Shown piece after piece: positions 27,152 through 48,366 of a DNA stretch of 64,000 bases. The position numbers and the translations under genes were made by a program. How positions within the stretch are numbered: the stretch's first letter is position 1; each line of letters opens with the position of its first letter. The notes beneath the pieces were generated by a model. The model was not told where the DNA came from. It saw only the letters and a list, made by a program, of their open reading frames with translations, and searched no databases. This DNA is from an uncultured Erysipelotrichaceae bacterium (GTDB lineage Bacteria; Bacillota_I; Bacilli_A; RFN20; CAG-826): the NCBI GenBank assembly GCA_902787955.1, contig CADAIJ010000007.1, forward strand, positions 128,326-192,325. Reading direction: 5' to 3'.

Positions 27152-27838
27152 ATGTCAAAACTAACTAGAGGAATAAAAGGAGAAGATAAAGTAAAAGAGG
27201 TGTTATCATCCTTAAAGGAATATCACCATGTTTTAAATGATATTTCTTTTATAAATGATAAGACCTCTATGACTCATCAAATAGATCATATCCTTATTCA
27301 TCCTTTAGGAGTGTTCCTCCTCGAAACTAAAAACTATTATGGAAGAATAGAGATAGATAGATTAACTAAGACTTGGTATAAGATAGTTAATAATAAAAGA
27401 ATAAGAATATCTAATCCCTTATCTCAGAATAAAGGACATCTAGTTATCCTTAATAGAGTGTTATCTAAGAAGTATGAAGTAATCCCTTTAATTGTATTTG
27501 TTAAGAATAACGCACCTTATATAGATAACACCTCTAACGATAATCTTATTAATCTAGATGATCTATTACTCTTTATTAGTTCTTATCCATCTAGAAGAGT
27601 GTTATCTAATAATGAAATAGATAAGATTAAAGAAACAATAGAGAGGACTTCCTATAGTGTTTCCTCTAATGAACATATAGAGAACATTAAGATTCTTAAA
27701 GCTTATAAGAAAGAACAAGAAGGACAGATATCTTATGCTTTGACAACATCTAAATGTCCGTGGTGTGATTCTCCTATTAAGCATTATAAAAATAACGAAT
27801 ATAAATGTTCTAAGTGTAACTTTGGGTTTAAGTTATAA
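27152..27838 (+). CDS. NERD-domain protein with a C-terminal zinc ribbon
   Basis: GEDKVKEVLSSL...IDHILIHPLGVFLLETKNYYGRI matches the NERD signature; C-terminal CPWCDS...CSKCN. Confidence 0.6.
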   Translation: MSKLTRGIKGEDKVKEVLSSLKEYHHVLNDISFINDKTSMTHQIDHILIHPLGVFLLETKNYYGRIEIDRLTKTWYKIVNNKRIRISNPLSQNKGHLVILNRVLSKKYEVIPLIVFVKNNAPYIDNTSNDNLINLDDLLLFISSYPSRRVLSNNEIDKIKETIERTSYSVSSNEHIENIKILKAYKKEQEGQISYALTTSKCPWCDSPIKHYKNNEYKCSKCNFGFKL

Positions 27839-27853
27839 GAATAATAAGTAAGA

Positions 27854-29050
27854 TTAGGAGTTCTTTACTGGGACATCATTTTCAAGGTGCCAGGTTCCAT
27901 AATAATTGACCTCTAAATTATTGTTGCTACTAAAACTATTGTCCCAACCGCTTGGTTTTGAAGCGTGATAAGTAAATAATGGGGTTCCTGTTTTATAAAA
28001 TCCATAATTTTCAATTGTGGTAACAAAAGCAGGAATAACGATATAACCTGTTAAAACACTGATACCGGAATTAGAGAATGCTCTAGATTTAATCGTGGTA
28101 ACACTCTCAGGGACAAATAAGCCGTTCAAGAAGACATTATTTGGAGCAAACACTAAGGTGGTCATGTCTTTAGAGTAAATAACGTTACCAACGGAAGTTA
28201 AAGAAGTGTTATTAGAGTCTACATTAATAGTTGTGATTGCTTCAGTGTAATCAAATGTCCCTGTAGCAATATCAGAAACATATCTTCCAATATTGACCGT
28301 AGTTAATTTTTTTAATGTATATATGTTGGCTTCTATCTTAGTAACGTTAAGACCTAAATAAGTATCAGGAATTGTTAATATAGTGGAGTTGCTATTGATA
28401 TTTGTGGATAAAACCGCGCTGAATGAATTGGTATCATCAAGATATTTAAAAGTGAGTCCATTTGTAAATGATTCACTATGAGAGCCAGTTACGCATGAAT
28501 ACTTAATAGATAATGAACTTACTTCTATAGGAGTATTGGATTCACTGTTAATAATAGAGAAATAGTTATAAGAATTAGATAAAACATATTCTTCATTACT
28601 ATTAATAATAAGATCAGTTACTTCCATATAAGAGGTAGAGTAACCTAACTCTAATCTAAGACTACCTGTACCAGTATAACTAATAGAGTTAATACCTTTA
28701 ATCTCTGTAAAGTTCTTAATATATCCACCTTTATTGATTTTAGTGACTTCATTAGACCCATCACTATAGGCTTTCTTATATTTAAAAGTTAATGGATAGG
28801 TTACTACTCTAGAAGTAACAAATGATTTCTCTGTAGAGGAAACTTCACTATCAAGTAAACCATATGGGTTAAAGGATAAGTTATAAGAGATAGGATCTCC
28901 TTTAACCACCATATTGTTATCTTTGTTATTAATGATATTAGAGTTACTACTTATAACCGCGGACATAACTGTTATAAGAGTAAGGCTAGGTAAAATACCC
29001 AGCATAAAGATATTTCTGAGTTTATTATTGTTCTTATTAATTTTATTCAT
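27854..29050 (-). CDS. secreted BspA-type leucine-rich-repeat surface protein
   Basis: Signal peptide; C-terminal repeats of the form IPxSVTTIxxxAFxxSGI. Confidence 0.55.
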   Translation of the reverse strand: MNKINKNNNKLRNIFMLGILPSLTLITVMSAVISSNSNIINNKDNNMVVKGDPISYNLSFNPYGLLDSEVSSTEKSFVTSRVVTYPLTFKYKKAYSDGSNEVTKINKGGYIKNFTEIKGINSISYTGTGSLRLELGYSTSYMEVTDLIINSNEEYVLSNSYNYFSIINSESNTPIEVSSLSIKYSCVTGSHSESFTNGLTFKYLDDTNSFSAVLSTNINSNSTILTIPDTYLGLNVTKIEANIYTLKKLTTVNIGRYVSDIATGTFDYTEAITTINVDSNNTSLTSVGNVIYSKDMTTLVFAPNNVFLNGLFVPESVTTIKSRAFSNSGISVLTGYIVIPAFVTTIENYGFYKTGTPLFTYHASKPSGWDNSFSSNNNLEVNYYGTWHLENDVPVKNS

Positions 29051-32283: not shown

Positions 32284-33066
32284 TTATTGTCTAAACCTTG
32301 AATAAGACAATTTTTGAACACGACATTTTTCTTTATAGTCTTCTGTTTTAAAATATTCTTCGTCTATTCCTACTTTAGCTAAAGGAAGAAAGCAATTGCT
32401 ATAATACTTAGGAAAAGGAGTATAATCACAAGTATCAGCGCAAACAATTCTATTACTATTTTTCCCTGGTAGGCTTCCCATTCTCAAGCGGACTTGCCTT
32501 ATTGATAATTTTCTAAATCCTTTTTCAAAGAAAAGGAAGTTTACACCACCAGGATTAGCGACAGATTTGTAAGCTAAACAATCAGGTCTTAATTCTATTA
32601 TTTCATTAATAACTTCTGTTTCTTCTTCGTTTAGGGTAATTCCTTCTTCGTTTTTCTTTAATATTTCATGAAAGGAGATATCTCTACCGTCAATAATAAT
32701 TAAGGGCTCACTATTATCTATAATAGGGAATGTGCTGGTTGCATCATCATACGCCCAAAAAGTAATAATATTATTCAATGACCCATGTTTCTTAATTTCT
32801 TTTCTTGCAGTATCTATTGAATCCGCCCAATAAGATAATTTTTGACCTGGAAAAAGAGTAGAGTATCTATTGTTAATATTAGATAATCTCAAATTTCCTT
32901 CGTTTAATTTAAATACGCTTTTGCCATAAAATGATGGATTGAATTCAACACATCTAAAAAAGTCAAATTCGTCGGTAACATATACAGGCAATCTGTTATG
33001 TTTGAAAATCTCTCTTCCCCAGTCTTGATTTGGAAATAATGGTGCATTAATTTTCCTTCCACTCAT
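32284..33066 (-). CDS. hypothetical protein, possibly RES-domain-like
   Basis: The segment NNRYSTLFPGQKLSYWADSIDTARKE resembles the RES-domain R...S...E core; weak. Confidence 0.3.
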   Translation of the reverse strand: MSGRKINAPLFPNQDWGREIFKHNRLPVYVTDEFDFFRCVEFNPSFYGKSVFKLNEGNLRLSNINNRYSTLFPGQKLSYWADSIDTARKEIKKHGSLNNIITFWAYDDATSTFPIIDNSEPLIIIDGRDISFHEILKKNEEGITLNEEETEVINEIIELRPDCLAYKSVANPGGVNFLFFEKGFRKLSIRQVRLRMGSLPGKNSNRIVCADTCDYTPFPKYYSNCFLPLAKVGIDEEYFKTEDYKEKCRVQKLSYSRFRQ

Positions 33067-33068
33067 TT

Positions 33069-36000
33069 TTACTTAACCATGTCCTCAGAAGTTTTTTCAA
33101 TGAACAATATTTCTTCATCGCTTAAACCGTACTTGCTATAAAGTTGCTTATCAATTTCAGAAACTGATTTATCCCATTGAATTTCTGAGTTATTAGAAAA
33201 ATCTAGTAATGGAATGTTTGCCCAAGTATCTTTAGGATTGTTTTGCGTAACTTTGAGTGTTCCCAGCATAAATCTTAAAAACTTTGTGTAAATATATTTT
33301 TCAAAATTTTTAGCTTCGATTTCAGTATTAAAATTACCAATGCTCATAAATGTTTGGGTATGACATTCATTTGGCTTAGCAACAATTGGCTTACTTAATT
33401 GTTCACCTAATTTTCCACTTCCATTTGCACCTGTTATAAAAACTTTATAATGATTTAAATTATCGTTTTCCCTAACATATTTATTCGCAATAAATTTCCA
33501 TGTACGTTGATTATTTTGTCTGCCACAAACTCTAATATCATCTTTATTTACTTGAGATTCAGAAAATACTTTTGGCATTTTTTCAAAAATACTAGCATCA
33601 ACTATTAGTTCGTTTCCTTTTGTAAACGTTCCGATATACTCAGGAAAATCTTTATAAATAATACTCTCAAGATTATATGTACTTTTTGGAAATGCTATAG
33701 AGTCAATAAAAACATCTGTTTTTTTTCTAACCTTTTCAATAATATTCTTAGTAATAGGATTTTCAGTGAAATGAACAATCGGGCCTATTTTTCTACTTTT
33801 ATCCATCAATGTTACCGCAACACCGCCTTTTATTTCGGCTGTAGGGAAAACAACACGTGAATCACTAAAGTAATCAATTACAGAAAAATGCTCATCATTC
33901 AACATTTTGATATTCCATTCTGCAGGAGTTTGTCCGGCATTGAATAAAAATCTTGCAGGGCTAATTAATGTAACTAAGTTTGAAATCGAAAATGAAGCCT
34001 GATAGAAATAATGATAAATAGGATTTTTTCTGTTATTATTTATTTCTTCTTGATATGGTGGATTGCCTACTATTGCATTGAATTTCATTTGCCCATGACC
34101 TCCTAAATTCCAGAATGATGGTTTTAATACTTTTTGTATAAATTGTGCTTGCTTATCTTTTAATTGCATTACTAAATCATCAAAAGAATGCATATTTGTT
34201 TTTCCATTTCTATAGCCAAGCAATGTTCTTTTAGTAATAAGTTTTGCCATTGGCGTTTTACAAATAACGAACACTTGATTCTTAACGACGTTATCCCAAT
34301 ATTCAACTTTCTTTTCAAAACTTATATCGTCTAAATTCTTAATCGCTTCTCTATATAAGGAATAAGTTACATATAGTGGATATAAACCTGTTTTTGAATT
34401 GATTTCAAGTATTTTTGCTTCTTTAGTAAACACTTTATTTGTAACATCAATTTGGTCAACAAATCTTGGTTCTTCTATCATGTTGTTATGAGATTCATCA
34501 AAGAAATCATAGCCACCAATAGTGTCTGACATATGCATATTCACAACACGCCATGGTGTCAAAACTGTTTCTTTATCAGGATTCTTAAATGTTGCAAATA
34601 ATGATGCAATTTTCTTTACTCTTTCAGTAGGTTCTAGTTCATCAGCTGTTTTAGCAATGTATCTTATTCTTCTACTTGCAGCTACAAAAATGTCTTTATC
34701 ATAATACTTAGAAAATTTTTTAAATGTTGCTTTATCTACGCCAGCAGGCATAAATTCATTCCAAGATGTATCATCAACTAAATCAGCAAAATTATCAATT
34801 GTGACATCTGCTTCAATATCGATATTCATACCATAAACTAGAAGAGGCATTCTAATAGAAATAGCTCTTAAAATAGATATAGCTGAATCGCGATTCTTTT
34901 TCTTTTCTTTTAATTCAGCAAGACGTTTCTTTTCTTCTTCAGTTAATTCTTGCTTTTTCTTTTTCTCTTTTAGTTTCTTTTCTTCTTCGGTTTCTTCCTC
35001 ATCAAAGCCTTCTTTATTAATATCAATATCTCCAGCTTTTTTAGTTTGCTTAGAAGCACCAACTATCTTTTTTAAGTTTTCGAATTCTTTTAATTCAACT
35101 TCAGTTAATTTTAGTAGCTCATCATTATAGATTTTAGGATCATCAAAGCCATTTCTAGCGACTCTTTCAGCATAAGCTTTCTTCAACTCTTGCAGCAACT
35201 CAGCAACTTGATATTCTTTCATATTAGAATCTTCAATTGCTATAACAGGGCAATAATTCAAGAACTTGGAAAGAGATAATTCAGCAACACTATTGTTTGC
35301 TCCTGCTCTTGCTGAAAGCTGTACCGATTCAGCTACCATCTTTAATGTACGATCTGGAGCAAAATCAAATACAAAGCATTCTGCCTTTATCTTGCCATTG
35401 ATATTTGCAGGAGATTGAACTCTAAAAATTGTTTGAAGATATTGGCTAGCTGCAGTCGAGTATGTGCCAGCAAGCATTAAAACTGCTGTCCATTCAGGAA
35501 CAGTAACTCCAGTAGTTAATCTTCCACAAGATAAAGTAATAGTTCTAGTATCTTCTGGGTGGTCTGTCATTTTTTCTTTTAACGCTTTTAAAGCATCAGA
35601 AGTATCAATTTCTTCTCCACCATCACCAGCAACATTAACAACAGCAAATTCTTTTAATATATGATGATTCTTTATTAGTTTTTCCAAAGCTTTAGCTTCT
35701 TTAACGCCAGGAACTACCCATAAAGAATGCCTAAAGTAATCTCTATATTCATCGGTTGAATAAGGATAATTTGTATCATCACTTTTTTTACATATTAAAT
35801 CTAAAAAGGCTTTTACATCTTGTTCATGAACAAAATCACCAGCTTTTACTCCGTTAGGTACTTTCTTGCCATCTTTTTCAATATCACCTGTCCAAATTCT
35901 AAAGAATTCTCTAAAGTTAAATGCCTTATCCATTACATCGATATATACTGGAAGACTCTTCTCAAGATGATAAGTAAATATATTCATTTTTGGAAGTTCC

Positions 36001-37082
36001 TCATACGGGTTAGAATCACCAAAATGGTTTTGGTCCCATAATGTTTTGGCTTCTTGTTCCATAATATAATCCCATGTATAAATGGATTCCTGTTCAAAAT
36101 CAGTTAGCAAGTTAAATGGTGTTCCTGATAATTCTAGAACGTGTGTTTTATATTCATCATTAGGTTTAATAACTGCTTCTAATACATTTTTACCAAGTTG
36201 TGTTTGAGTTCCTTCGTGTGCTTCATCGACAACAACAAAGTCCCAGTTTGTCTTAAACACATCATCATTCTTATCAAAGTTCCCACCAACAGCATCACTA
36301 CCACGTAAATCTTGCATAGAAGCAAAATAAACAAAAGAAAGTCCAGCTTTTTCTAGTTCTTTGATGGATTTATGGCCATCTTTTTTAGAGCCAAATGCAT
36401 AATTTGGTTTATCGTAAAAAATTTTACCAAAATCCTCGAACCAGCCATCACTTACTACTGGTCTATGAGTAATAATTATTGTTCTCTTAAATTCCATCTC
36501 TTTAGCCACTTCTAAAGCAGTTAAAGTTTTTCCAAAACGCATCTTAGCATTCCAAAGCATTCTATTATCCGTCTTGTATCTGAAAATGGTCTTTTTAATG
36601 GCTTCTTTTTGTTCTGGCCTAAATATAATAGGATTTTTATTACTCGTCATTTGTGATGAATTTAATGCAGTGTTTCCAGCCTTTACAGCTGCAATAGCAT
36701 TCTTTGCTGTATTTAAATCACATTCAAACCACTCATTTGGCTTTTTATTGAATTCAAATGTTTTCTTTTTTATACCAGAGCGGATTAAAACTTCATGTAC
36801 TTTATAGTCTCTAAATGCTTTAACTTTTCCATCTTTATTGTAGACAGCAATTTCAGTATGAATTAAATCATAATTAATTGCAGCGGTTGCTGTATATGAG
36901 TCTATTCTTTTTCTGGCTGCATAATTTAAATCATGGCAATTTGGAGCAAAGCTAGAATAAGGCTTATCAGTATGAATTGTAGCATCACCAATCTTTAAGC
37001 ACCCTGCGTGTTGCTTATCATTAATTCTAAATATATAAATAAGTTTATATTCAAATGTTGAATTGAATTTTATTGAACACAT
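33069..37082 (-). CDS. single-polypeptide restriction-modification-like enzyme: T5orf172/GIY-YIG-like domain + SF2 (res-subunit-type) helicase + coiled-coil linker + gamma-class N6-adenine methyltransferase + C-terminal target-recognition-like region
   Basis: N-terminus YKLIYIFR...LKIGDAT...EWFECDL fits the T5orf172 pattern. Walker A GKT and DEAH-box FVVVDEAHEG. A charged coiled coil EEETEEEKKLKEKKKKQ. MTase motif I-like KILEINSKTGLY and motif IV AIVGNPPYQ. Confidence 0.7.
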   Translation of the reverse strand: MCSIKFNSTFEYKLIYIFRINDKQHAGCLKIGDATIHTDKPYSSFAPNCHDLNYAARKRIDSYTATAAINYDLIHTEIAVYNKDGKVKAFRDYKVHEVLIRSGIKKKTFEFNKKPNEWFECDLNTAKNAIAAVKAGNTALNSSQMTSNKNPIIFRPEQKEAIKKTIFRYKTDNRMLWNAKMRFGKTLTALEVAKEMEFKRTIIITHRPVVSDGWFEDFGKIFYDKPNYAFGSKKDGHKSIKELEKAGLSFVYFASMQDLRGSDAVGGNFDKNDDVFKTNWDFVVVDEAHEGTQTQLGKNVLEAVIKPNDEYKTHVLELSGTPFNLLTDFEQESIYTWDYIMEQEAKTLWDQNHFGDSNPYEELPKMNIFTYHLEKSLPVYIDVMDKAFNFREFFRIWTGDIEKDGKKVPNGVKAGDFVHEQDVKAFLDLICKKSDDTNYPYSTDEYRDYFRHSLWVVPGVKEAKALEKLIKNHHILKEFAVVNVAGDGGEEIDTSDALKALKEKMTDHPEDTRTITLSCGRLTTGVTVPEWTAVLMLAGTYSTAASQYLQTIFRVQSPANINGKIKAECFVFDFAPDRTLKMVAESVQLSARAGANNSVAELSLSKFLNYCPVIAIEDSNMKEYQVAELLQELKKAYAERVARNGFDDPKIYNDELLKLTEVELKEFENLKKIVGASKQTKKAGDIDINKEGFDEEETEEEKKLKEKKKKQELTEEEKKRLAELKEKKKNRDSAISILRAISIRMPLLVYGMNIDIEADVTIDNFADLVDDTSWNEFMPAGVDKATFKKFSKYYDKDIFVAASRRIRYIAKTADELEPTERVKKIASLFATFKNPDKETVLTPWRVVNMHMSDTIGGYDFFDESHNNMIEEPRFVDQIDVTNKVFTKEAKILEINSKTGLYPLYVTYSLYREAIKNLDDISFEKKVEYWDNVVKNQVFVICKTPMAKLITKRTLLGYRNGKTNMHSFDDLVMQLKDKQAQFIQKVLKPSFWNLGGHGQMKFNAIVGNPPYQEEINNNRKNPIYHYFYQASFSISNLVTLISPARFLFNAGQTPAEWNIKMLNDEHFSVIDYFSDSRVVFPTAEIKGGVAVTLMDKSRKIGPIVHFTENPITKNIIEKVRKKTDVFIDSIAFPKSTYNLESIIYKDFPEYIGTFTKGNELIVDASIFEKMPKVFSESQVNKDDIRVCGRQNNQRTWKFIANKYVRENDNLNHYKVFITGANGSGKLGEQLSKPIVAKPNECHTQTFMSIGNFNTEIEAKNFEKYIYTKFLRFMLGTLKVTQNNPKDTWANIPLLDFSNNSEIQWDKSVSEIDKQLYSKYGLSDEEILFIEKTSEDMVK

Positions 37083-38059
37083 AAGGTATACCCCCTAGCT
37101 AGTAAATCTACATATCTTACTTTTTTATTCTTTTCCCAATCCATTATCTTTGCATATATGCCGTTATGCTGATATACATCGCCTTTAGCACAACCTATGC
37201 ATCCATTTTCTTGTACATCTTCTTCGCCAAACAAGTTTATTTGAACTATTCTTTCTACTTGACAAGATTCAGGTATAACGCATTTAATTCCATCCATTTG
37301 CCATAAATTCCAAGAAATAATAGTTGCAACTTCAATCATTAAATCTTGAGATGGAAGCTCATTTAATTTTGCATAGTAATACTCAAAATAACTAAATAGG
37401 ACATTTTCTCGTGCAAGTAATAAATTATCTCCTTGCCATTCATAACCATATGTTGCTTTTAAGGCTTCTAAAGAATATTTTACCCAGTCCTCTTTATTAT
37501 TAGTATTCTCATTAACGACTCTTAACTTTCTATCTAAAAGACCTACTCTATCCTTTAAATCAATTCTATTACCAGTAACAGTATCATAACGACTAACAAT
37601 ATAAGGGGCTTCACCACATGTTATTTCCATTCTTATATCTTTAACATAGTCTATCCACGTTTTGCCTTCTGGATACTCAATTTTAGATTCAGTAGATTTC
37701 CATGTATTATTATCTAGCTCCTCATTGAAGACACCTGTTTTATTAAACCATGCATTATCAATTAAATTGTTTTGTTTATTACACATCCAAGATGGTGTAA
37801 ATACTTCAGCATTATCTTTAGATCTCTTTGATTGTTCGGTTTTTGATTTTTGGCTTCTGGGTTTAATGAAATTCTTTTCACCAATAATAAAAGGTGACAT
37901 GTTTTCTTTAAATCTATATCCTTTTCTTTTATATGAGTCAGTAGCCCAAATAATATTTTTTCTAGTTGTATTATCTATCAAAAGTAAATCCAGAATCTTT
38001 GGATAATTTTCTAATAGGTATTTTTCATTGATGTCAATTGAATCCAAAAATTCCATCAT
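37070..38059 (-). CDS. hypothetical protein co-transcribed with the helicase-MTase (contains an EVFTP-type motif-X-like string but no NPPY)
   Basis: 329 aa; AEVFTPSWMCNKQNNLID; overlaps both the upstream HTH gene and the downstream giant gene. Confidence 0.4.
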   Translation of the reverse strand: MMEFLDSIDINEKYLLENYPKILDLLLIDNTTRKNIIWATDSYKRKGYRFKENMSPFIIGEKNFIKPRSQKSKTEQSKRSKDNAEVFTPSWMCNKQNNLIDNAWFNKTGVFNEELDNNTWKSTESKIEYPEGKTWIDYVKDIRMEITCGEAPYIVSRYDTVTGNRIDLKDRVGLLDRKLRVVNENTNNKEDWVKYSLEALKATYGYEWQGDNLLLARENVLFSYFEYYYAKLNELPSQDLMIEVATIISWNLWQMDGIKCVIPESCQVERIVQINLFGEEDVQENGCIGCAKGDVYQHNGIYAKIMDWEKNKKVRYVDLLARGYTLCVQ

Positions 38060-38250
38060 TATTCCTCCACTTCAATTTTATATTTTTCTAAATAAGGCAT
38101 TAACATTCTTTTAATTTTCATAGTTGGTTCATGCGTTCCCGCTTCCCATCTATTAACAGTACCGAAAGTCACACCAAAAAGTGCTCCAAATTCAGTCTGA
38201 GTTAAACACATTTTTAATCTAACTTTTTTTATAGCTTCATTATATTTCAT
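38059..38250 (-). CDS. XRE-family HTH protein (controller-like)
   Basis: LTQTEFGALFGVTFGTVNRWEAG is an HTH_3 motif; first gene of the operon; a TATAAT lies about 30 nt upstream. Confidence 0.6.
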   Translation of the reverse strand: MKYNEAIKKVRLKMCLTQTEFGALFGVTFGTVNRWEAGTHEPTMKIKRMLMPYLEKYKIEVEE

Positions 38251-38558
38251 TGTTAAAAAGCCTCATTTCATAAATATGTTAATATTATATCATCTTTTAA
38301 TCATTTTTGCTATTGTTAAGAGTTAATTTCTTCCTTAATATCTTTTTATTACTTCAAGTACTGGTCCAAACATAACTGGATCTAATGCATCGCAAAGCCA
38401 AGTTTATGTAATTCTTTTATCATATTTTCATTCATAAAGTTAAAACCATATGCATACCATTTGGGTCACCTCAATTTTAAATAATTGTGAACAGCGAATT
38501 TTGGCAGATACTATAAAAATGAATCTATAGATAATATTTCTATTATAAATACACAAGT

Positions 38559-38713: not shown

Positions 38714-40027
38714 TTATATATCGCGGTAACCTAGCATCCAATTTATCCAACTTCGAATTGTTGAAGCTCTCCTTTTAAATGTGGAATCTGATAATTTTAA
38801 TGTATCTTTTTTATCTAAAAGCATCATCTCAATATCATCTGTGGTTGACTTAGTAATACTCTTTTCTCTCAAATCATTGTAAATTTTATTAAAAATGTCT
38901 TTCGAAATTAGTCTGTTAAATATCTCTTTTTCAATTTCTTCTTTATTACCTATTACCTTCAATGCGGAATCAGTAAACTTTTTTTCATGAGTGAGAAAAC
39001 CCAAATATACCAATGCCGAAAGGTAATAAGAGATTTGCCTTTCCGTATTTAAATCTAGAATTTTTAAAGCGTAGTCTTTATCATCTAAAACTCTTTGCCC
39101 CGCAATTAACATATTTACAATCTTAGTAATGTCATTTGCTTGAGGAAGAGTATTGTTAAAACCAAGAATTATAACTTCTTTTCCGCTTTTTCTTTCATTT
39201 CCATTAGAGTTAATACTGCGCAAAGTGGAAAACTTTTCTGCATAGTAGAAAATTTGGTATTTAGAATCTTTAGAAAATAACTCTATTACTTTTTCTGTCG
39301 CATTATTACTAAGAACTAATGCAGCGCCATTATCAATTGCTCTATCGCAAACAATTTTTAATTTTTCAAAATCACTAAATGTAAATCCAGCTAATTGATA
39401 TTTTGTAAAACCATCATCATCCTCATAATCATATGGTGGATCAACATAAATTATGTCGCCTGCTTTTGCCATATTTATTGCAGCCTCATAGGAACCAGAT
39501 AGAATTTTTATCGTATCCTTATTCTCAAATAAATATTTATGTATTTCTCTTAAGTTCGAACTATCACAGATTGTTGGATTTCGATATCTTCCGATTGGCG
39601 TGTTGAATTGCCCTTTATTATTAACTCGGTATAAGCCGTTGTAGCATGTTTTGTTAAGGAAAATCATGCGTGCAGCTCTTTCGACTGGTGAGTATGCTTG
39701 CGGCCAATCTTCTCTTCTATCCCACGCTCTTACTTCATAATAAAAATCGTCAGGATCTTGCCTGTATTTAGTATCAAATTCTTGAAGCTTAATAATTAAT
39801 TCTTCAATCTTATTGGACTGGATTACTTTATACGCATTTATTAAATCTTCGTTTAAATCGTTGATTATCGCCTTAGTGGGTTTGCGATCAAAAAACACTG
39901 CGCCGCCACCTAAAAAAGGTTCGATATAAGTAAAATCTTGAGAACCATCTGCTATTTCATCGATGTATCCATTGATTTTATCTAATATTTGCCTTTTTCC
40001 ACCGGCCCATTTAACAAAAGGTTTCAT
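38714..40027 (-). CDS. Dam-family (D12 class) N6-adenine DNA methyltransferase with a C-terminal extension of about 150 aa
   Basis: FVKWAGGKRQIL N-terminal signature, FLGGGAVFF SAM motif, and VDPPYD catalytic motif. Confidence 0.8.
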   Translation of the reverse strand: MKPFVKWAGGKRQILDKINGYIDEIADGSQDFTYIEPFLGGGAVFFDRKPTKAIINDLNEDLINAYKVIQSNKIEELIIKLQEFDTKYRQDPDDFYYEVRAWDRREDWPQAYSPVERAARMIFLNKTCYNGLYRVNNKGQFNTPIGRYRNPTICDSSNLREIHKYLFENKDTIKILSGSYEAAINMAKAGDIIYVDPPYDYEDDDGFTKYQLAGFTFSDFEKLKIVCDRAIDNGAALVLSNNATEKVIELFSKDSKYQIFYYAEKFSTLRSINSNGNERKSGKEVIILGFNNTLPQANDITKIVNMLIAGQRVLDDKDYALKILDLNTERQISYYLSALVYLGFLTHEKKFTDSALKVIGNKEEIEKEIFNRLISKDIFNKIYNDLREKSITKSTTDDIEMMLLDKKDTLKLSDSTFKRRASTIRSWINWMLGYRDI

Positions 40028-40034
40028 TTATTAT

Positions 40035-40775
40035 TTATTCACTAGTTAATTTCTTTAATTGATTGTATACCATTTCTGCTAAATCTTCTTCACTTATCGC
40101 GTCTAACAATCTTACGCTGCCTAAATAAGAAATGTATTTTGCTATTTCTGCATATAAATCATTATTTTCATTGTTTGGGTTTTCATCGTAAAACCTTTTT
40201 TCTCCGCGTAAGGCACCTCTCACTAAATGTTCTTCAGAAGAGAATGAACGCCATGTTAGGTTTCTAAATCTCAATGGATTCTCAACAACCCATTTTGATA
40301 ATTCATACTTATCGGGTTTTGATTCATCAACAGTAAGTGCTATACGGAAATAACATCGAGATAAAACCCCAAACATGAGTCCTCTTCTAACACCTGTTGT
40401 GTGAAGCCACATATTTTTAATTGTTGTTGAACTATTAATCTTCATAAGGTTTTTGGTAACTAAATAGAATTTATCTAAATGCAACCAAAGCCAGAATCTT
40501 ACATCGGTTAAAATGTGTCGTGGAAGTTGATTTAAGTGTTCATATAACCTTTTAGAGTTTTCGAAATCGATTTCTTTATCTTTTCCTTCAGGGTTATCAA
40601 TTAATTCAAAATCTTCAATTGCGATTTTCTTTTCAACAAACATTGGTTGAGGAAAAGTATCTTTCATCCAAGCATTATCATCATTTGAGATAATTAAATT
40701 AGTCAAAGATTCAACGTTATGAACAAAATATTCATAAGCATCATTTGATAAAAGTTTAATATGAATAAACGCCAT
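40035..40775 (-). CDS. hypothetical protein (cassette member)
   Basis: 246 aa; directly follows the next ORF upstream with a 2-nt gap. Confidence 0.4.
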   Translation of the reverse strand: MAFIHIKLLSNDAYEYFVHNVESLTNLIISNDDNAWMKDTFPQPMFVEKKIAIEDFELIDNPEGKDKEIDFENSKRLYEHLNQLPRHILTDVRFWLWLHLDKFYLVTKNLMKINSSTTIKNMWLHTTGVRRGLMFGVLSRCYFRIALTVDESKPDKYELSKWVVENPLRFRNLTWRSFSSEEHLVRGALRGEKRFYDENPNNENNDLYAEIAKYISYLGSVRLLDAISEEDLAEMVYNQLKKLTSE

Positions 40776-40777
40776 AA

Positions 40778-41683
40778 TTATTCCTCCTCAGGTTGTGCTG
40801 TTTTCGATTGAAGCGATAATTTTTCAAGACTAGAACCAAAAGGTTTTTTCAAAAGCTGTTGTGCGAAAGAACACGCAGAAGTCTTCTTAAATGTATCAAC
40901 TTCTAAATCGGTTCCAAATAATCTTTTGTATGATGACAAAACCGATCTAAACCAAATATGTTTATTACAAATATCATCGAAATCTACGTCATCATCTTGA
41001 ATTTCACTTTTACAAATTGAGAAGCCTTCAGTTAACGCTGGAATAAGCAAAGAATTAAAGAACATTTCTTGATAAGCAGGAATTGCATAAATGATTTTAT
41101 AATTATCAAAATCTTTCTTTGCCATCGTAATAACAATCTTCTTAGAAGAATCGCAATCAACAGAAAACATTCCATCTTCTAGTTTTTCATCGCAAATAAT
41201 GGAGAATATAGATGAGACAACATTGTTTTCTTTTTCTTCGTGACGGGCATGCATGTTAAACCCATCATAAACTGCGACTATATCATATTTTTCAATGCTG
41301 AATTTATAGTCTAAGTAATCATCATCAAACTCGTCAGATGAGAGTATAAAATCTTCTGTTGCATAAGCAAATAATGAGCAATCCAATCTTTCATTAAAAT
41401 CAGATTTATATAAAGTTAATTTTTGAGGTTGCTGAGTAATGACAAATTTTTTTCTAAATACGGTATACGAACATTCAATAATTAATAAGATTTCAATTTT
41501 CTTTTCATCATAAAGCTTTTGGATTGTTTTGCTGTTCGTCACGAAACAAATGTTATCAAAAACAAATCTGTCATCATATTCAATAAAATCGTAGCTAAGA
41601 TCAAAGGTTAAATCTTTGTAATTAGATAATCCTAAATTTTTATTAATAACAGGATACGGAAACAGCTTATTTCTGACTTGCAT
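40778..41683 (-). CDS. hypothetical protein (cassette member)
   Basis: 301 aa, acidic; overlaps the GHKL gene by 17 nt, implying translational coupling. Confidence 0.4.
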   Translation of the reverse strand: MQVRNKLFPYPVINKNLGLSNYKDLTFDLSYDFIEYDDRFVFDNICFVTNSKTIQKLYDEKKIEILLIIECSYTVFRKKFVITQQPQKLTLYKSDFNERLDCSLFAYATEDFILSSDEFDDDYLDYKFSIEKYDIVAVYDGFNMHARHEEKENNVVSSIFSIICDEKLEDGMFSVDCDSSKKIVITMAKKDFDNYKIIYAIPAYQEMFFNSLLIPALTEGFSICKSEIQDDDVDFDDICNKHIWFRSVLSSYKRLFGTDLEVDTFKKTSACSFAQQLLKKPFGSSLEKLSLQSKTAQPEEE

Positions 41684-43610
41684 ATGTTATTTTAACCTCG
41701 CTTCCAAAATTTTCGTGAATATTTGTAACTAATTGAATTAAGACTTTTTGTCCTTCTTTTATCGAAAAAGGCCCAGCTTCAATTTGTGTTGAGCAATCAA
41801 CATTAATTCCATTCACTTTCATTTCTATAATCTCAATTTGCTCGCCACCATTTACATCATCAAGTCTTAAAAGTGATAAGTAACATTCTTCTTTAGAAGT
41901 TGGGGCATTAAAGACAACGTTAAATCTGCCTTCTTTTGGGTTTACACCAATAAACTTATAATTTACTCCGGCGAGCTTTGTTCGAACGAAAATGACGCTA
42001 TCCCCATCTTTTTTTCCACCTTTTTCAGTGCCAGGATGAGGGTCACCACCAGTTTTTTCATTCCTACCACCAGGATATTCAACTTCATTGCCTTCATCAT
42101 CAATGCCACCAATTTGTGGTTCAAGTCCATTGTCAAAATCGCTCTTATAGTTTGCGTTCTTGCTAGATGTTGAATTTTCTTTTCTTTTTGACATTGTAAC
42201 TTCATCAGCTGGTTTTGGTTTTTCATTATTCTTCTGTCCGCTATCACCTGCAGCTTCATCTGGCAAATATTCACCGGCCCCATTTGGATCGATCGGATCA
42301 TCATTGTCTAGTTGAAGACATTCAATAATTTTCTCATTAATCTTTATTTTAATTTCATTAATTAATCCAACGATTTCTTTTTTATATGCTTTATCTTCAA
42401 TTCTATTTGTTTCCCAATCATCATGTTTTGGGTTTTCTATATTGCGTAGGGCTTTTCCTAAATCTTCGCCTTCAATAATACAAAGTGCAGAAGCATCATA
42501 TGAATTCGACATATTAAAGTTTTTAATCTTCATATATGGTTTTCTAATCATTGTGATTTGATGTGTTGCCAAATCAGAATTATCTTTGCCAAGTTTTAAT
42601 ATATATAAACTGCAATTGCCATATTCTGTATCGATATCGAAAACGCTAACATCTTCTCCACCTTTTAAAATTAAATATTGAGATACTATTTCATTTTTTA
42701 ACTTAGCATCAATGAGTTCTTCGTCAAAAACTAAACTATCAAGTGTTTCTTTTGAAATAATAATATCTTGATATTTTACAACTATATGACCGTAGAAAAT
42801 CGATGCCATGAATGACTCAAGCACGCTATTAACAACTTCTTTTTTAGTATCTGCAGAATCAGAGTAACCGATAATAAAAATATCGGTTCCACATTCATCG
42901 TTTCGATTCAATGCACTCTCATCAAGCATCAATAAATTATCGCAAGGTTCATGCAATTCATTAGAACAATAATATCCCTTTCCTAAAGTGTAATCATTGC
43001 TTTGAGAACCAACAACTACACCGGAAGCAAAATCGGCAACGCCAATTGATCCAGAATAACTACACAGTTCACCGTTTAGCCCTTGATTTGTCTTAGTTGA
43101 ATAAAATACAACCTTAGTTGAAGACATTAAAAAGGCAGCATTTTTACCAACACCCTTAGATCCTCCTGCTAACTCACTAGGTTTTTCTGATACACCAGTA
43201 CTTTTAGCTAAAGCTAAAAATCTATTATTTTCTGATTCGTTACTTTCTATACCAACTAGACCAGTTGTATTGTAGTCGCTTACTCTTAGACATGTGATTT
43301 TTTTGCTAGATAATGACTTTAATATTTTGTCATAAACAGCAACATAGTCTTTCTTGTATGACCAAAGATCAATACAGTTTTGGGCAGCTTGGCGAAGTTC
43401 GTCAATCCCCGGAATCTTAGCTGTATCAATTTCAAATGTTTTAAATTCAACAAGGACAGGACTCTCGTCTGAAGCTCTCGCATCAATTGAGTTCTGTAAA
43501 ATTTCACGTGCAAAGCCTTTATGCGCGTTCTTTTTGAATGTTTCGGTATCAGCAGTGCTTATACCCCTTTTATCAGTGTGATTTGCTTTAGGAAATCTCC
43601 AATTATTCAT
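41667..43610 (-). CDS. GHKL/Bergerat-fold ATPase (MORC/MutL-like HATPase_c) protein
   Basis: Motif N FAREILQNSIDA, G1-like SDYNTTGLVG, G2-like GGSKGVGKNAAF. The large C-terminal region has no recognised motif. Confidence 0.65.
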   Translation of the reverse strand: MNNWRFPKANHTDKRGISTADTETFKKNAHKGFAREILQNSIDARASDESPVLVEFKTFEIDTAKIPGIDELRQAAQNCIDLWSYKKDYVAVYDKILKSLSSKKITCLRVSDYNTTGLVGIESNESENNRFLALAKSTGVSEKPSELAGGSKGVGKNAAFLMSSTKVVFYSTKTNQGLNGELCSYSGSIGVADFASGVVVGSQSNDYTLGKGYYCSNELHEPCDNLLMLDESALNRNDECGTDIFIIGYSDSADTKKEVVNSVLESFMASIFYGHIVVKYQDIIISKETLDSLVFDEELIDAKLKNEIVSQYLILKGGEDVSVFDIDTEYGNCSLYILKLGKDNSDLATHQITMIRKPYMKIKNFNMSNSYDASALCIIEGEDLGKALRNIENPKHDDWETNRIEDKAYKKEIVGLINEIKIKINEKIIECLQLDNDDPIDPNGAGEYLPDEAAGDSGQKNNEKPKPADEVTMSKRKENSTSSKNANYKSDFDNGLEPQIGGIDDEGNEVEYPGGRNEKTGGDPHPGTEKGGKKDGDSVIFVRTKLAGVNYKFIGVNPKEGRFNVVFNAPTSKEECYLSLLRLDDVNGGEQIEIIEMKVNGINVDCSTQIEAGPFSIKEGQKVLIQLVTNIHENFGSEVKITYASQK

Positions 43611-47394: not shown

Positions 47395-48366
47395 TTATTT
47401 GCTGTTTTTCTTAATTAGGTTGTTTAAAGGTGGGTGTCCACTTTCTGTGAGCATTTTATTAGCCGCTACAAGATCCATATGATCGTTGAAAGCGCGCATA
47501 ATAATCTTGTCTTTGCTGATATTTGCATCAAGTTTCTCGTTTATTAATGATAGGAGTTCTTGTGTTTGACGTACATCAAGGCCTAGATTAAAGCAAATGC
47601 CTATGAGGGTATATTTCTTTGGAATCGATCCATTGAGAATATTGTTGAATCCTGTTTGACTAATAACACCTGAGAAACATTGTGCCTTACTAGCGGTCTT
47701 ATCAATCATGTATTTTTTTATTTTTAAAGATAGTTCGTTGGAATCTGGTGCTTTTCTTTGAATATCGTAAATGTTTGAGGTGTACCAGAAAAAACGTTCG
47801 TATTCTCGATCTCTGCTTTCTAGCATTTCCTTGCTTTCTTTTGTAAGGTGGCCACTGACAACATTGTAATTTTCGAAAATATCTTTGTATGTTTTAAACA
47901 TTGATTCGGTGTAAACCATTAAACCGACATTTAGTTCTTCGTGTTTTTCTAAATACTTTGTAATTGCGTTAATCGCTATCTCAATTGCATCTCTTTTAGG
48001 GTATTTATAGGCACCAGTGGATAGAAGTGGAAAAGCGATACTATCTAAATCGAAATCAGTTGCCATTTTTAAACAGGATAGATAAGAAATCATTAAGAGT
48101 CCTTCTTCGTTATGTTTACCATCAATCCACTTAGGATCTGCAACTAAGATAATTCTTTTACAAGGAAGGTTATACGCATTAACAATGATGCATTGGCCAA
48201 TATTGATTGGACTAAATTGTTTTAGTTCTCTGGCAAGTTTATCTCCACCTATTTTCGCTAGTTGTTCGCCCATTGGTCCTTCTAGTTTTAATGAAGGTTG
48301 TGTTGGCACTACAATAGCGTCGTAACGTTGCTCAAAGATATCTCCCTTAACAATACTGAACCCCAT
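47395..48366 (-). CDS. macro-domain protein (divergent MacroD-like N-terminal domain plus a C-terminal extension)
   Basis: SIVKGDIFEQRYDAIVVP...GEQLAKIGG parallels the macro-domain start VKGDIT...DAIVNAAN...GGGV. Confidence 0.5.
   Translation of the reverse strand: MGFSIVKGDIFEQRYDAIVVPTQPSLKLEGPMGEQLAKIGGDKLARELKQFSPINIGQCIIVNAYNLPCKRIILVADPKWIDGKHNEEGLLMISYLSCLKMATDFDLDSIAFPLLSTGAYKYPKRDAIEIAINAITKYLEKHEELNVGLMVYTESMFKTYKDIFENYNVVSGHLTKESKEMLESRDREYERFFWYTSNIYDIQRKAPDSNELSLKIKKYMIDKTASKAQCFSGVISQTGFNNILNGSIPKKYTLIGICFNLGLDVRQTQELLSLINEKLDANISKDKIIMRAFNDHMDLVAANKMLTESGHPPLNNLIKKNSK

Follow-up and report, generated by a model that had tools for sequence, protein, structure and literature searches.

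The genes at the locus and the parts of the large protein

The window analyzed here, a stretch of 64,000 nucleotides (nt) from contig CADAIJ010000007.1 of an uncultured Erysipelotrichaceae bacterium, encodes a protein of 1337 amino acids (aa) at 33069-37082 that combines a nuclease-like head, a superfamily 2 (SF2) helicase-like ATPase and an N6-adenine (N6A) DNA methylase. It is preceded by a gene for a smaller protein, in the following referred to as the partner. Positions are those of the whole window and, unless stated otherwise, residues are those of the 1337-aa protein. An initial annotation had described the large gene as a single-chain Type ISP-like restriction-modification (R-M) enzyme with a GIY-YIG-like head, giving the correct boundaries but leaving the strand unstated. 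Translation of the window showed a single unbroken open reading frame (ORF) on the minus strand, starting with the ATG at 37082, while the plus strand of the same region is full of stops; a Shine-Dalgarno-like AGGGGG is located 8 nt upstream of the ATG. All motifs quoted in that annotation were found in the uninterrupted frame: YKLIYIFR (12-19), LKIGDAT (29-35), EWFECDL (117-123), the Walker A GKT (184-186), FVVVDEAHEG (282-291), KILEINSKTGLY (890-901) and GNPPYQ (1006-1011). The features of the locus are listed in Table 1.

Pfam scans of the large protein identified ResIII at 154-323 (E 1e-13) and an Eco57I methylase at 935-1078 (E 4e-24). The PADLOC model REase_MTase_IIG matched with E 9e-51, the best-scoring stretch being the C-terminal methylase and target-recognition region (TRD) at 888-1329, and the stand-alone PADLOC MTase_II model PDLC03375 spans residues 999-1330. 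For the head and the full-length protein, 34 homologues from genome loci and plasmids (38-71% identical) were aligned. The SF2 motifs GKT (184-186), DEAHEG (286-291), SGT (319-321), TTG (523-525) and Q550/R554 as well as GNPPY (1006-1010) are invariant among these. Pfam, the invariant motifs and a structural model therefore bear out the four predicted parts, i.e., head, SF2 motor, charged linker and gamma-class methylase with TRD, and none of the motifs is degenerate, as the key residues are invariant across the alignment. The Lys/Glu-rich linker is also real in that its helices in the AlphaFold2 (AF2) model, which covers residues 140-1337, flank a stretch with a predicted local distance difference test (pLDDT) score below 50 (fragment residues 537-556, full-length 676-695). 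A TRD-like tail is likewise supported: the majority-residue fraction is about 0.7 through residue 1000 and drops to 0.24-0.45 across the TRD, with the lowest values (0.24-0.27) at 1121-1200.

As assigned by inspection, the N-terminal half of the large protein's own methylase displays motif X (ETVLTPWRVVN, 838-848) and a motif I-like segment ILEINSKTGLYPL (891-903). Within the latter, the unusual INSK.G.YPL (894-903) is invariant across the 34 homologues, and the subsequent beta2 strand (VFVICKT) has no acidic residue of the kind usual for motif II. Foldseek matched this N-half to CamA, LlaBIII and PglX.

Table 1. Features of the T5orf172-helicase-methylase locus and the evidence for each (window positions).
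Feature	Position	Strand	Evidence and remarks
T5orf172-SF2 ATPase-linker-N6A methylase-TRD protein, 1337 aa	33069..37082	-	ORF, Pfam, alignment, AF2/Foldseek; start overlaps partner stop by 13 nt
T5orf172 (GIY-YIG superfamily) nuclease-like head, aa ~12-135	36678..37049	-	Pfam, 34-homologue alignment
SF2 helicase-like ATPase, two RecA-like lobes, aa ~150-600	35283..36635	-	Pfam ResIII, invariant motifs, Foldseek
Lys/Glu-rich charged helical linker, aa ~655-735	34878..35120	-	Sequence and AF2 model
Coupler-like helices and the protein's own methylase N-half, aa ~736-1000	34083..34877	-	Invariant columns, model, Foldseek
Methylase catalytic half, aa ~1001-1080, start of exchangeable cassette	33843..34082	-	Pfam Eco57I, alignment
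Hypervariable target-recognition region (TRD), aa ~1081-1240	33363..33842	-	Conservation profile, identities of relatives
Conserved C-terminal domain, aa 1241-1337	33072..33362	-	Comparison with P0249, PADLOC PDLC03375
Partner, half-methylase-like, 329 aa	37070..38059	-	PADLOC, AF2 model, synteny
HTH_3 protein, 63 aa, first gene of the operon	38059..38250	-	Pfam HTH_3 (2e-7), weak PADLOC control-protein match
Possible extended -10 promoter element TGATATAAT, ~30 nt upstream of the HTH_3 gene	38284..38292	-	Read from the sequence, inference only
ORF, 260 aa, 2 nt downstream of the large gene	32284..33066	-	Outside the conserved module, strain-specific cargo

The head is probably of the T5orf172 type

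The assignment of the head as T5orf172/GIY-YIG-like, and not Mrr/PD-(D/E)xK, was corroborated by profile searches at the level of the family. The N-terminal 154 aa alone scored 19.7 bits with Pfam T5orf172 (PF10544), slightly under the gathering cut-off of 20 (E 0.0013), and 32 of the 34 homologues matched the same model at E < 0.01 (best 5.6e-9), eight also matching the sister family MUG113. Invariant among the homologues are Y16, K30, G32, R59, D92, E117 and W118, and H96 is nearly so. By motif inspection, Y16, K30-I-G32, R59 and E117 correspond to the core residues of the GIY-YIG superfamily, and Y16, K30, R59 and E117 appear to coincide with the positions which the initial annotation had given to a GIY-YIG-like core. 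No match to a PD-(D/E)xK family occurred at the N-terminus in the Pfam scans, and a search of the N-terminal profile against the sequences of the Protein Data Bank (PDB) returned nothing useful. Aligned by hhalign with one canonical GIY-YIG protein annotated in RefSeq from a Lactococcus garvieae plasmid, the N-terminal profile showed no relation; with only one target sequence, this comparison is uninformative.

Nuclease activity of a T5orf172 domain has been proven for Odn of phage ICP1 (PMC8263062), and the domain is included in a list of nuclease domains found in N6A restriction systems (Iyer et al., 2016; PMC4738411). The T5orf172 nucleases of ICP1/PLE (Odn/Gp88, homing-endonuclease-like; PMC8263062, PMC10448857) belong to the same Pfam domain and keep the GIY-YIG-type core residues. 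However, they are small proteins, stand-alone or fused to DNA-binding domains with a sequence specificity of their own, whereas the domain described here is the predicted effector head of a translocating R-M enzyme. The lactococcal large proteins (1454-1461 aa) possess an additional DUF4145 (E 4e-5) in front of the T5orf172 head (L050 1127-1560, L051 2664-3090). Downstream on the L. garvieae plasmid, a separate canonical GIY-YIG protein is encoded.

Motor, methylase and TRD resemble Type ISP enzymes in predicted structure

The AF2 model of residues 140-1337 (pLDDT 80) was searched against the PDB by Foldseek. The best match was the Type ISP enzyme LlaBIII (4xqk, E 5e-20, alignment of about 1460 columns), followed by LlaGI (5ffj, E 4e-14). 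Later matches comprised the Eco57I-like methylase CamA, PglX/BrxX and the ATPases SNF2, RadD and SauUSI. In agreement with the Type ISP-like layout proposed at the outset, SF2 ATPase, coupler, gamma-class N6A methylase and TRD follow one another in one chain.

The likeness to LlaGI and LlaBIII thus comprises the N-to-C order of nuclease head, SF2 motor, coupler/linker, gamma-class N6A methylase and C-terminal TRD, the exchange of TRDs on a conserved core as described for that pair (PMC3553950), and the occurrence of homologues on plasmids of lactic acid bacteria. In contrast, the head is T5orf172/GIY-YIG-like where LlaGI and LlaBIII carry an Mrr PD-(D/E)xK nuclease, and similarity of the present family to the two enzymes is not detected by HMMER. 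In addition, a half-methylase partner gene is always adjacent here and does not occur with Type ISP enzymes, and the swapped cassette consists of catalytic half plus TRD, unlike the exchange between LlaGI and LlaBIII.

A half-methylase-like partner accompanies the large protein

In a tblastn comparison of the window neighbours with 49 genome loci, the partner gene was found immediately upstream of the large gene in all 46 that retain a 5' flank; the remaining three are truncated on that side. On all four plasmids inspected (Lactococcus, Enterococcus, Lysinibacillus), the gene that precedes the homologue also aligns with the partner. In Methanosphaera sp. BMS (CP014213.1, L053 5378-13000), a partner of 325 aa, 55% identical to that of the window, is paired with a large protein of 1340 aa, and the presence of the pair in a gut methanogen indicates transfer between bacteria and archaea. 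The Methanosphaera pair adjoins a GmrSD Type IV enzyme. In the window, the partner start overlaps the stop of the 63-aa HTH_3 gene (TAATG) and its stop overlaps the start of the large gene by 13 nt, suggesting translational coupling with both neighbours. In the locus L014 an apparent fusion of partner and helicase was dismissed, as a stop codon separates the two genes.

The partner has no match in Pfam but matched the PADLOC MTase_II model with E 2.6e-111, and a search of 1.84 billion cluster representatives yielded 2350 relatives, 795 of them at E<=1e-30. Its sequence displays motif X (AEVFTPSW), a motif I-like EITCGEAPY, a motif II-like YGYE and WQMDG, followed by a Cys-rich C-terminal beta domain; an (N/D)PP(Y/F) motif is absent. 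The AF2 model of the partner is of high quality (pLDDT 90, predicted template-modelling score 0.89), and its Foldseek search gave nothing significant, the structures named there being PglX, DrdV, CamA, MmeI, BsaXI and BpuSI. The Lactococcus partner contains a canonical motif I (LEPAAGDGNF), aligns with the N6_Mtase model (311 positions) at 20-105 only, and is the only partner with a match to MmeI_Mtase, which is sub-threshold. Because motifs X, I and II are present, NPPY is missing and the N6_Mtase match of the Lactococcus protein is partial, the partner, as modelled, resembles a gamma-class methylase reduced to its S-adenosylmethionine (SAM)-binding N-terminal half, the catalytic half being absent. 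Aligned by hhalign with the N-half of the large protein, the partner profile matched at the FTP/LTP segment of motif X only and not significantly, so that the relationship between the two is drawn from fold and motifs only.

About 60 positions are invariant among 62 sequences of the partner family. Partner divergence tracks that of the head and the helicase (Spearman rho 0.74 and 0.73), but not that of the catalytic half (-0.03). Along with the overlapping genes, this correlation speaks for a single enzyme made up of both proteins. RefSeq names the partners inconsistently, i.e., 'restriction endonuclease' (L056 2302-3150, Enterococcus faecium, 282 aa), 'hypothetical protein' (L057 2705-3487, Lysinibacillus, 260 aa), 'N-6 DNA methylase' (L050 433-1125, Lactococcus, 230 aa) and 'restriction endonuclease subunit M' (P0224), and none of these names describes a half-methylase lacking the catalytic motif.

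The operon's first gene, encoding a candidate C-protein-like controller as judged from its helix-turn-helix (HTH) family, occurs upstream in six of the 49 genome loci and on the E. faecium plasmid and is therefore accessory. A scan of the region for promoters and terminators gave nothing above shuffled expectation.

Catalytic half and TRD move between the two chains

Among the top 150 representatives of the partner family, 101 are at most 420 aa long, 96 of these lacking NPPY. A further 27 comprise 561-780 aa with NPPY at about 300-390, and those tested matched Pfam Eco57I at this position. This sister arrangement was seen in the loci L054 and L055. In the 670-aa protein P0249, the partner sequence is directly followed by 'MKFDFVIGNPPYQ', a TRD and the C-terminal domain, and its C-terminal half is 32% identical to residues 995-1335 of the window protein. 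The following gene encodes 1116 aa with T5orf172/MUG113, a helicase (32% identical to 59-689) and a region collinear with 722-970. The C-terminal region of this protein contains motif X (QIFTPKNVV) and a motif I-like FIDLYMKSGLY and stops before the catalytic strand, without NPPY. Read from the alignments, both arrangements consist of two predicted methylase N-halves and one cassette of catalytic half and TRD, which is placed on either chain. In addition, P0281 is a natural fusion of partner, T5orf172 head and helicase.

Exchange of the cassette is also apparent from the relatives of the window protein: P0005 and P0006 are 92% identical in the core (150-1080) and 21% in the TRD (1081-1240), whereas P0007 is 74% identical in the core and 91% in the TRD. 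The identity of the catalytic half falls together with that of the TRD and independently of the core, and the exchange unit starts at about residue 1001, just ahead of the NPPY strand. Judging by the same comparisons, the conserved C-terminal domain travels with catalytic half and TRD as one cassette.

In the light of these findings, the description of the enzyme as single-chain could not be maintained. The companion gene is adjacent wherever the flank is available, including the archaeon and the four plasmids, the sister arrangement places catalytic half and TRD on the partner, and fusions exist, which departs from the single polypeptide of Type ISP enzymes.

Relationship to other R-M systems

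The dnmA(yeeA)-yeeB-yeeC cluster (PMC2731913, PMC9973331) comprises the same three activities, a gamma-class N6A methylase with TRD, an SF2 helicase and a T5orf172/GIY-YIG nuclease, and such clusters have been predicted to be Type I-like with single-strand modification (Morgan et al., 2009; PMC2731913). By the published description, these are three separate proteins in another gene order with a methylase of the MmeI type. The present system differs in the fusion of T5orf172 to the helicase, in its Eco57I-type methylase and in having a half-methylase partner; no MmeI_Mtase match was obtained for the large protein in the Pfam scan.

Methylase, TRD and C-terminal part are shared with Type IIG/IIL and Eco57I-family enzymes (Eco57I, MmeI, DrdV, BpuSI; CamA; PglX/BrxX), a likeness based on Pfam Eco57I, the PADLOC models REase_MTase_IIG and MTase_II and the structures of CamA, PglX and DrdV. 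However, these enzymes have no helicase motor, and those of Type IIG carry a PD-(D/E)xK head that cleaves at a short, constant distance, whereas here an SF2 ATPase with all motifs is situated between head and methylase. PglX acts with BREX partners and is a structural relative of the methylase part only; the BREX core genes PglZ, BrxC and BrxL were not found among the window neighbours by Pfam and PADLOC scans.

The initial annotation had also proposed a distinct architecture. A GIY-YIG-type head on a Type ISP-like layout is indeed what was found, but its novelty was overstated. The family is abundant and already labelled in RefSeq ('Eco57I restriction-modification methylase domain-containing protein') and by PADLOC (REase_MTase_IIG), and uncharacterized Type ISP/IIL relatives with helicases and GIY-YIG nucleases have been noted before (Morgan et al., 2009, PMC2731913; Sisakova et al., 2013, PMC3553950). 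In the literature we found no paper describing the fused architecture, the half-methylase partner or the reciprocal placement of the cassette.

Distribution and genomic surroundings

The family is very large, with more than 8000 database matches scored and full-length copies on 51 plasmids, and the module is also carried by small non-mobilizable plasmids. The closest genome match (96%) is a metagenome-assembled genome of an uncultured gut Bacillales. For the homologue on pUC047G, no methylation motif is assigned in the main text of the lactococcal methylome paper. More distant relatives, 28-36% identical over 69-80% of the protein, occur in human gut phage records (MT835780.1, MT835565.1 and PV036449.1, the latter L052 5911-10367), and in the only one of these records with annotation, the matching region falls on two genes, for a 'DNA methyltransferase' and a hypothetical protein. 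These phage relatives might serve self-protection or anti-defence rather than restriction.

Directly upstream of the module, a second defence-type operon is located on the minus strand (38714-43610). It contains a fusion of a D12-class (Dam-like) adenine methylase with DUF7226 (38714-40027), whose C-terminus weakly matches a PADLOC Type II restriction endonuclease model, and homologues of the PADLOC candidate system PDC-M33, i.e., C (DUF6339, 40035-40775), B (40778-41683) and A (41667-43610), with E-values of 1e-37 to 9e-124. The D12 methylase was considered as a second methylase of the module and rejected: it has no counterpart in 51 related loci, and the PDC-M33 C, B and A homologues follow it directly on the same strand.

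On the other side, the 260-aa ORF displays a sub-threshold match to Pfam RES (E 0.013, 15.9 bits versus a cut-off of 23.2, profile positions 25-142 of 157). As it was found only in the 96% identical locus L001, it may represent toxin-like cargo on the operon, and together with the sub-threshold match this also ruled it out as the 'real' nuclease of the system. Further genes in the surroundings encode a NERD protein (27152-27838, plus strand), a BspA-type leucine-rich-repeat protein (27854-29050, minus strand) and a Macro-domain protein (47395-48366, minus strand). The region is consistent with a variable defence/accessory island.

Proposed function and alternatives

Taken together, we consider it probable, at roughly 0.6, that the locus encodes a two-gene ATP-dependent Type ISP-like R-M module with a T5orf172 head and an obligatory small partner. 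The large protein and the partner would act in one complex, in which recognition of an asymmetric site would fall to the TRD, while the NPPY centre would methylate one adenine and thereby mark self DNA. On unmodified DNA, the SF2 motor would translocate along the double strand away from the site, and the T5orf172 head would nick or cut distant, non-specific DNA, probably when two enzymes collide, as in LlaGI (PMC3553950). The partner may dock on the methylase/helicase core as a SAM-binding or pseudo-methylase subunit and could license or regulate the complex, a role that would resemble that of the second, non-catalytic Mod protomer of Type III enzymes. Where present, the HTH gene may delay expression of the nuclease upon entry into a new host.

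Several observations weigh against this reading. The head of this particular sequence is borderline, remaining 0.3 bits under the Pfam T5orf172 cut-off, and the N-half of the large protein's methylase has no usual acidic residue of motif II. The resemblance to Type ISP enzymes is one of predicted structure, with a low global TM score of 0.30, as is expected for a flexible multidomain chain. Searches by phmmer and profile hmmsearch against all PDB sequences, 4xqk and 5ffj included, gave nothing at E<=1, and the Type ISP layout therefore rests on predicted structure and not on sequence. Furthermore, the analogous dnmA-yeeB-yeeC cluster of Bacillus subtilis gave no restriction or phage defence (PMC9973331), and we found no biochemical or genetic test of any family member in the literature.

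The reciprocal arrangements raise the question of how the methylase is assembled. Tentatively, it may be split, with the mobile catalytic half and TRD on either subunit and the SAM-binding half of the other chain completing or licensing it. If true, the family would be a distinct two-subunit ATP-dependent R-M subtype combining a T5orf172 nuclease with a split or pseudo-dimeric methylase, in which SAM sensing, self-marking and nuclease licensing would be wired unlike in Type I, III or ISP enzymes. In a stricter form, the partner would supply the functional SAM-binding half in trans and the N-half of the helicase protein would be a degenerate pseudo-domain. The sister arrangement, which fuses a partner-like N-half in cis directly to the NPPY half, speaks for this, as does the fact that the partner terminates right at the 'GG' found ahead of the MKF..GNPPY strand in the fused form. 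The partner also keeps the hallmark acidic residues E145, E207 and D256 and, in the Lactococcus homologue, motif I LEPAAGDGNF, while beta2 of the helicase protein lacks the acidic motif II residue not only in the window (VFVICKT) but also in the sister arrangement (QVYGLAP). We nevertheless regard the strict form as rather unlikely, since the AF2 model unites the catalytic half with the cis N-half in one complete fold (pLDDT about 90) and matches full-length CamA, partner divergence is independent of the catalytic half, and motif I of the cis N-half (E..G.Y), which we take to be TaqI-like from the motif I of M.TaqI, is invariant.

At the other extreme, the large protein could be a true single-chain Type ISP-like enzyme and the upstream gene an independent or dispensable methylase remnant. 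On paper the large protein indeed holds every activity, its model is a complete helicase-methylase-TRD, and LlaGI works without a partner (PMC3553950). A remnant is nevertheless very hard to reconcile with a gene that is kept adjacent in 46 of 46 loci across Bacillota, Bacteroidota, Synergistota and an archaeon, evolves under strong purifying selection and overlaps its neighbour, and for which natural fusions and a reciprocal domain arrangement exist. Little more can be said for a function other than restriction, in which the T5orf172 domain would be a DNA-binding module of either a BREX-like non-cleaving defence or a methylation-only or anti-restriction helicase-methylase of mobile elements, of which DarB of phage P1 is an example. 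Distant homologues in gut phage genomes and PglX/BrxX among the structural matches are in line with this idea, and the related dnmA-yeeB-yeeC cluster acted as an orphan methylase in B. subtilis (PMC9973331). It is improbable, however, as none of the putative catalytic residues in the head varies, PglZ, BrxC and BrxL are missing from the neighbourhood, and the phage matches are distant, the one annotated example being split into two genes. Moreover, TRD shuffling, a controller-like HTH protein, carriage on small non-mobilizable plasmids and a defence-island context fit classical R-M.

Implications for the family

To our knowledge, mechanistic studies of Type ISP enzymes have been limited to two, both of which have an Mrr head. 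The present locus points to the same chassis of motor, methylase and TRD, as judged from sequence and model, here equipped with a GIY-YIG-type head and a predicted companion half-methylase. The family extends far beyond the studied pair of LlaGI and LlaBIII, occurring in gut Bacillota, Bacteroidota and Synergistota, in a methanogen, and on dairy and clinical plasmids of Lactococcus and Enterococcus. Its characterization would give thousands of genes with inconsistent annotation a function and methylation motifs and would probe whether collision-type cleavage can run with a nicking-type GIY-YIG nuclease. Finally, the cassette of specificity plus catalysis moving between subunits provides a natural example that would be useful for engineering new specificities.

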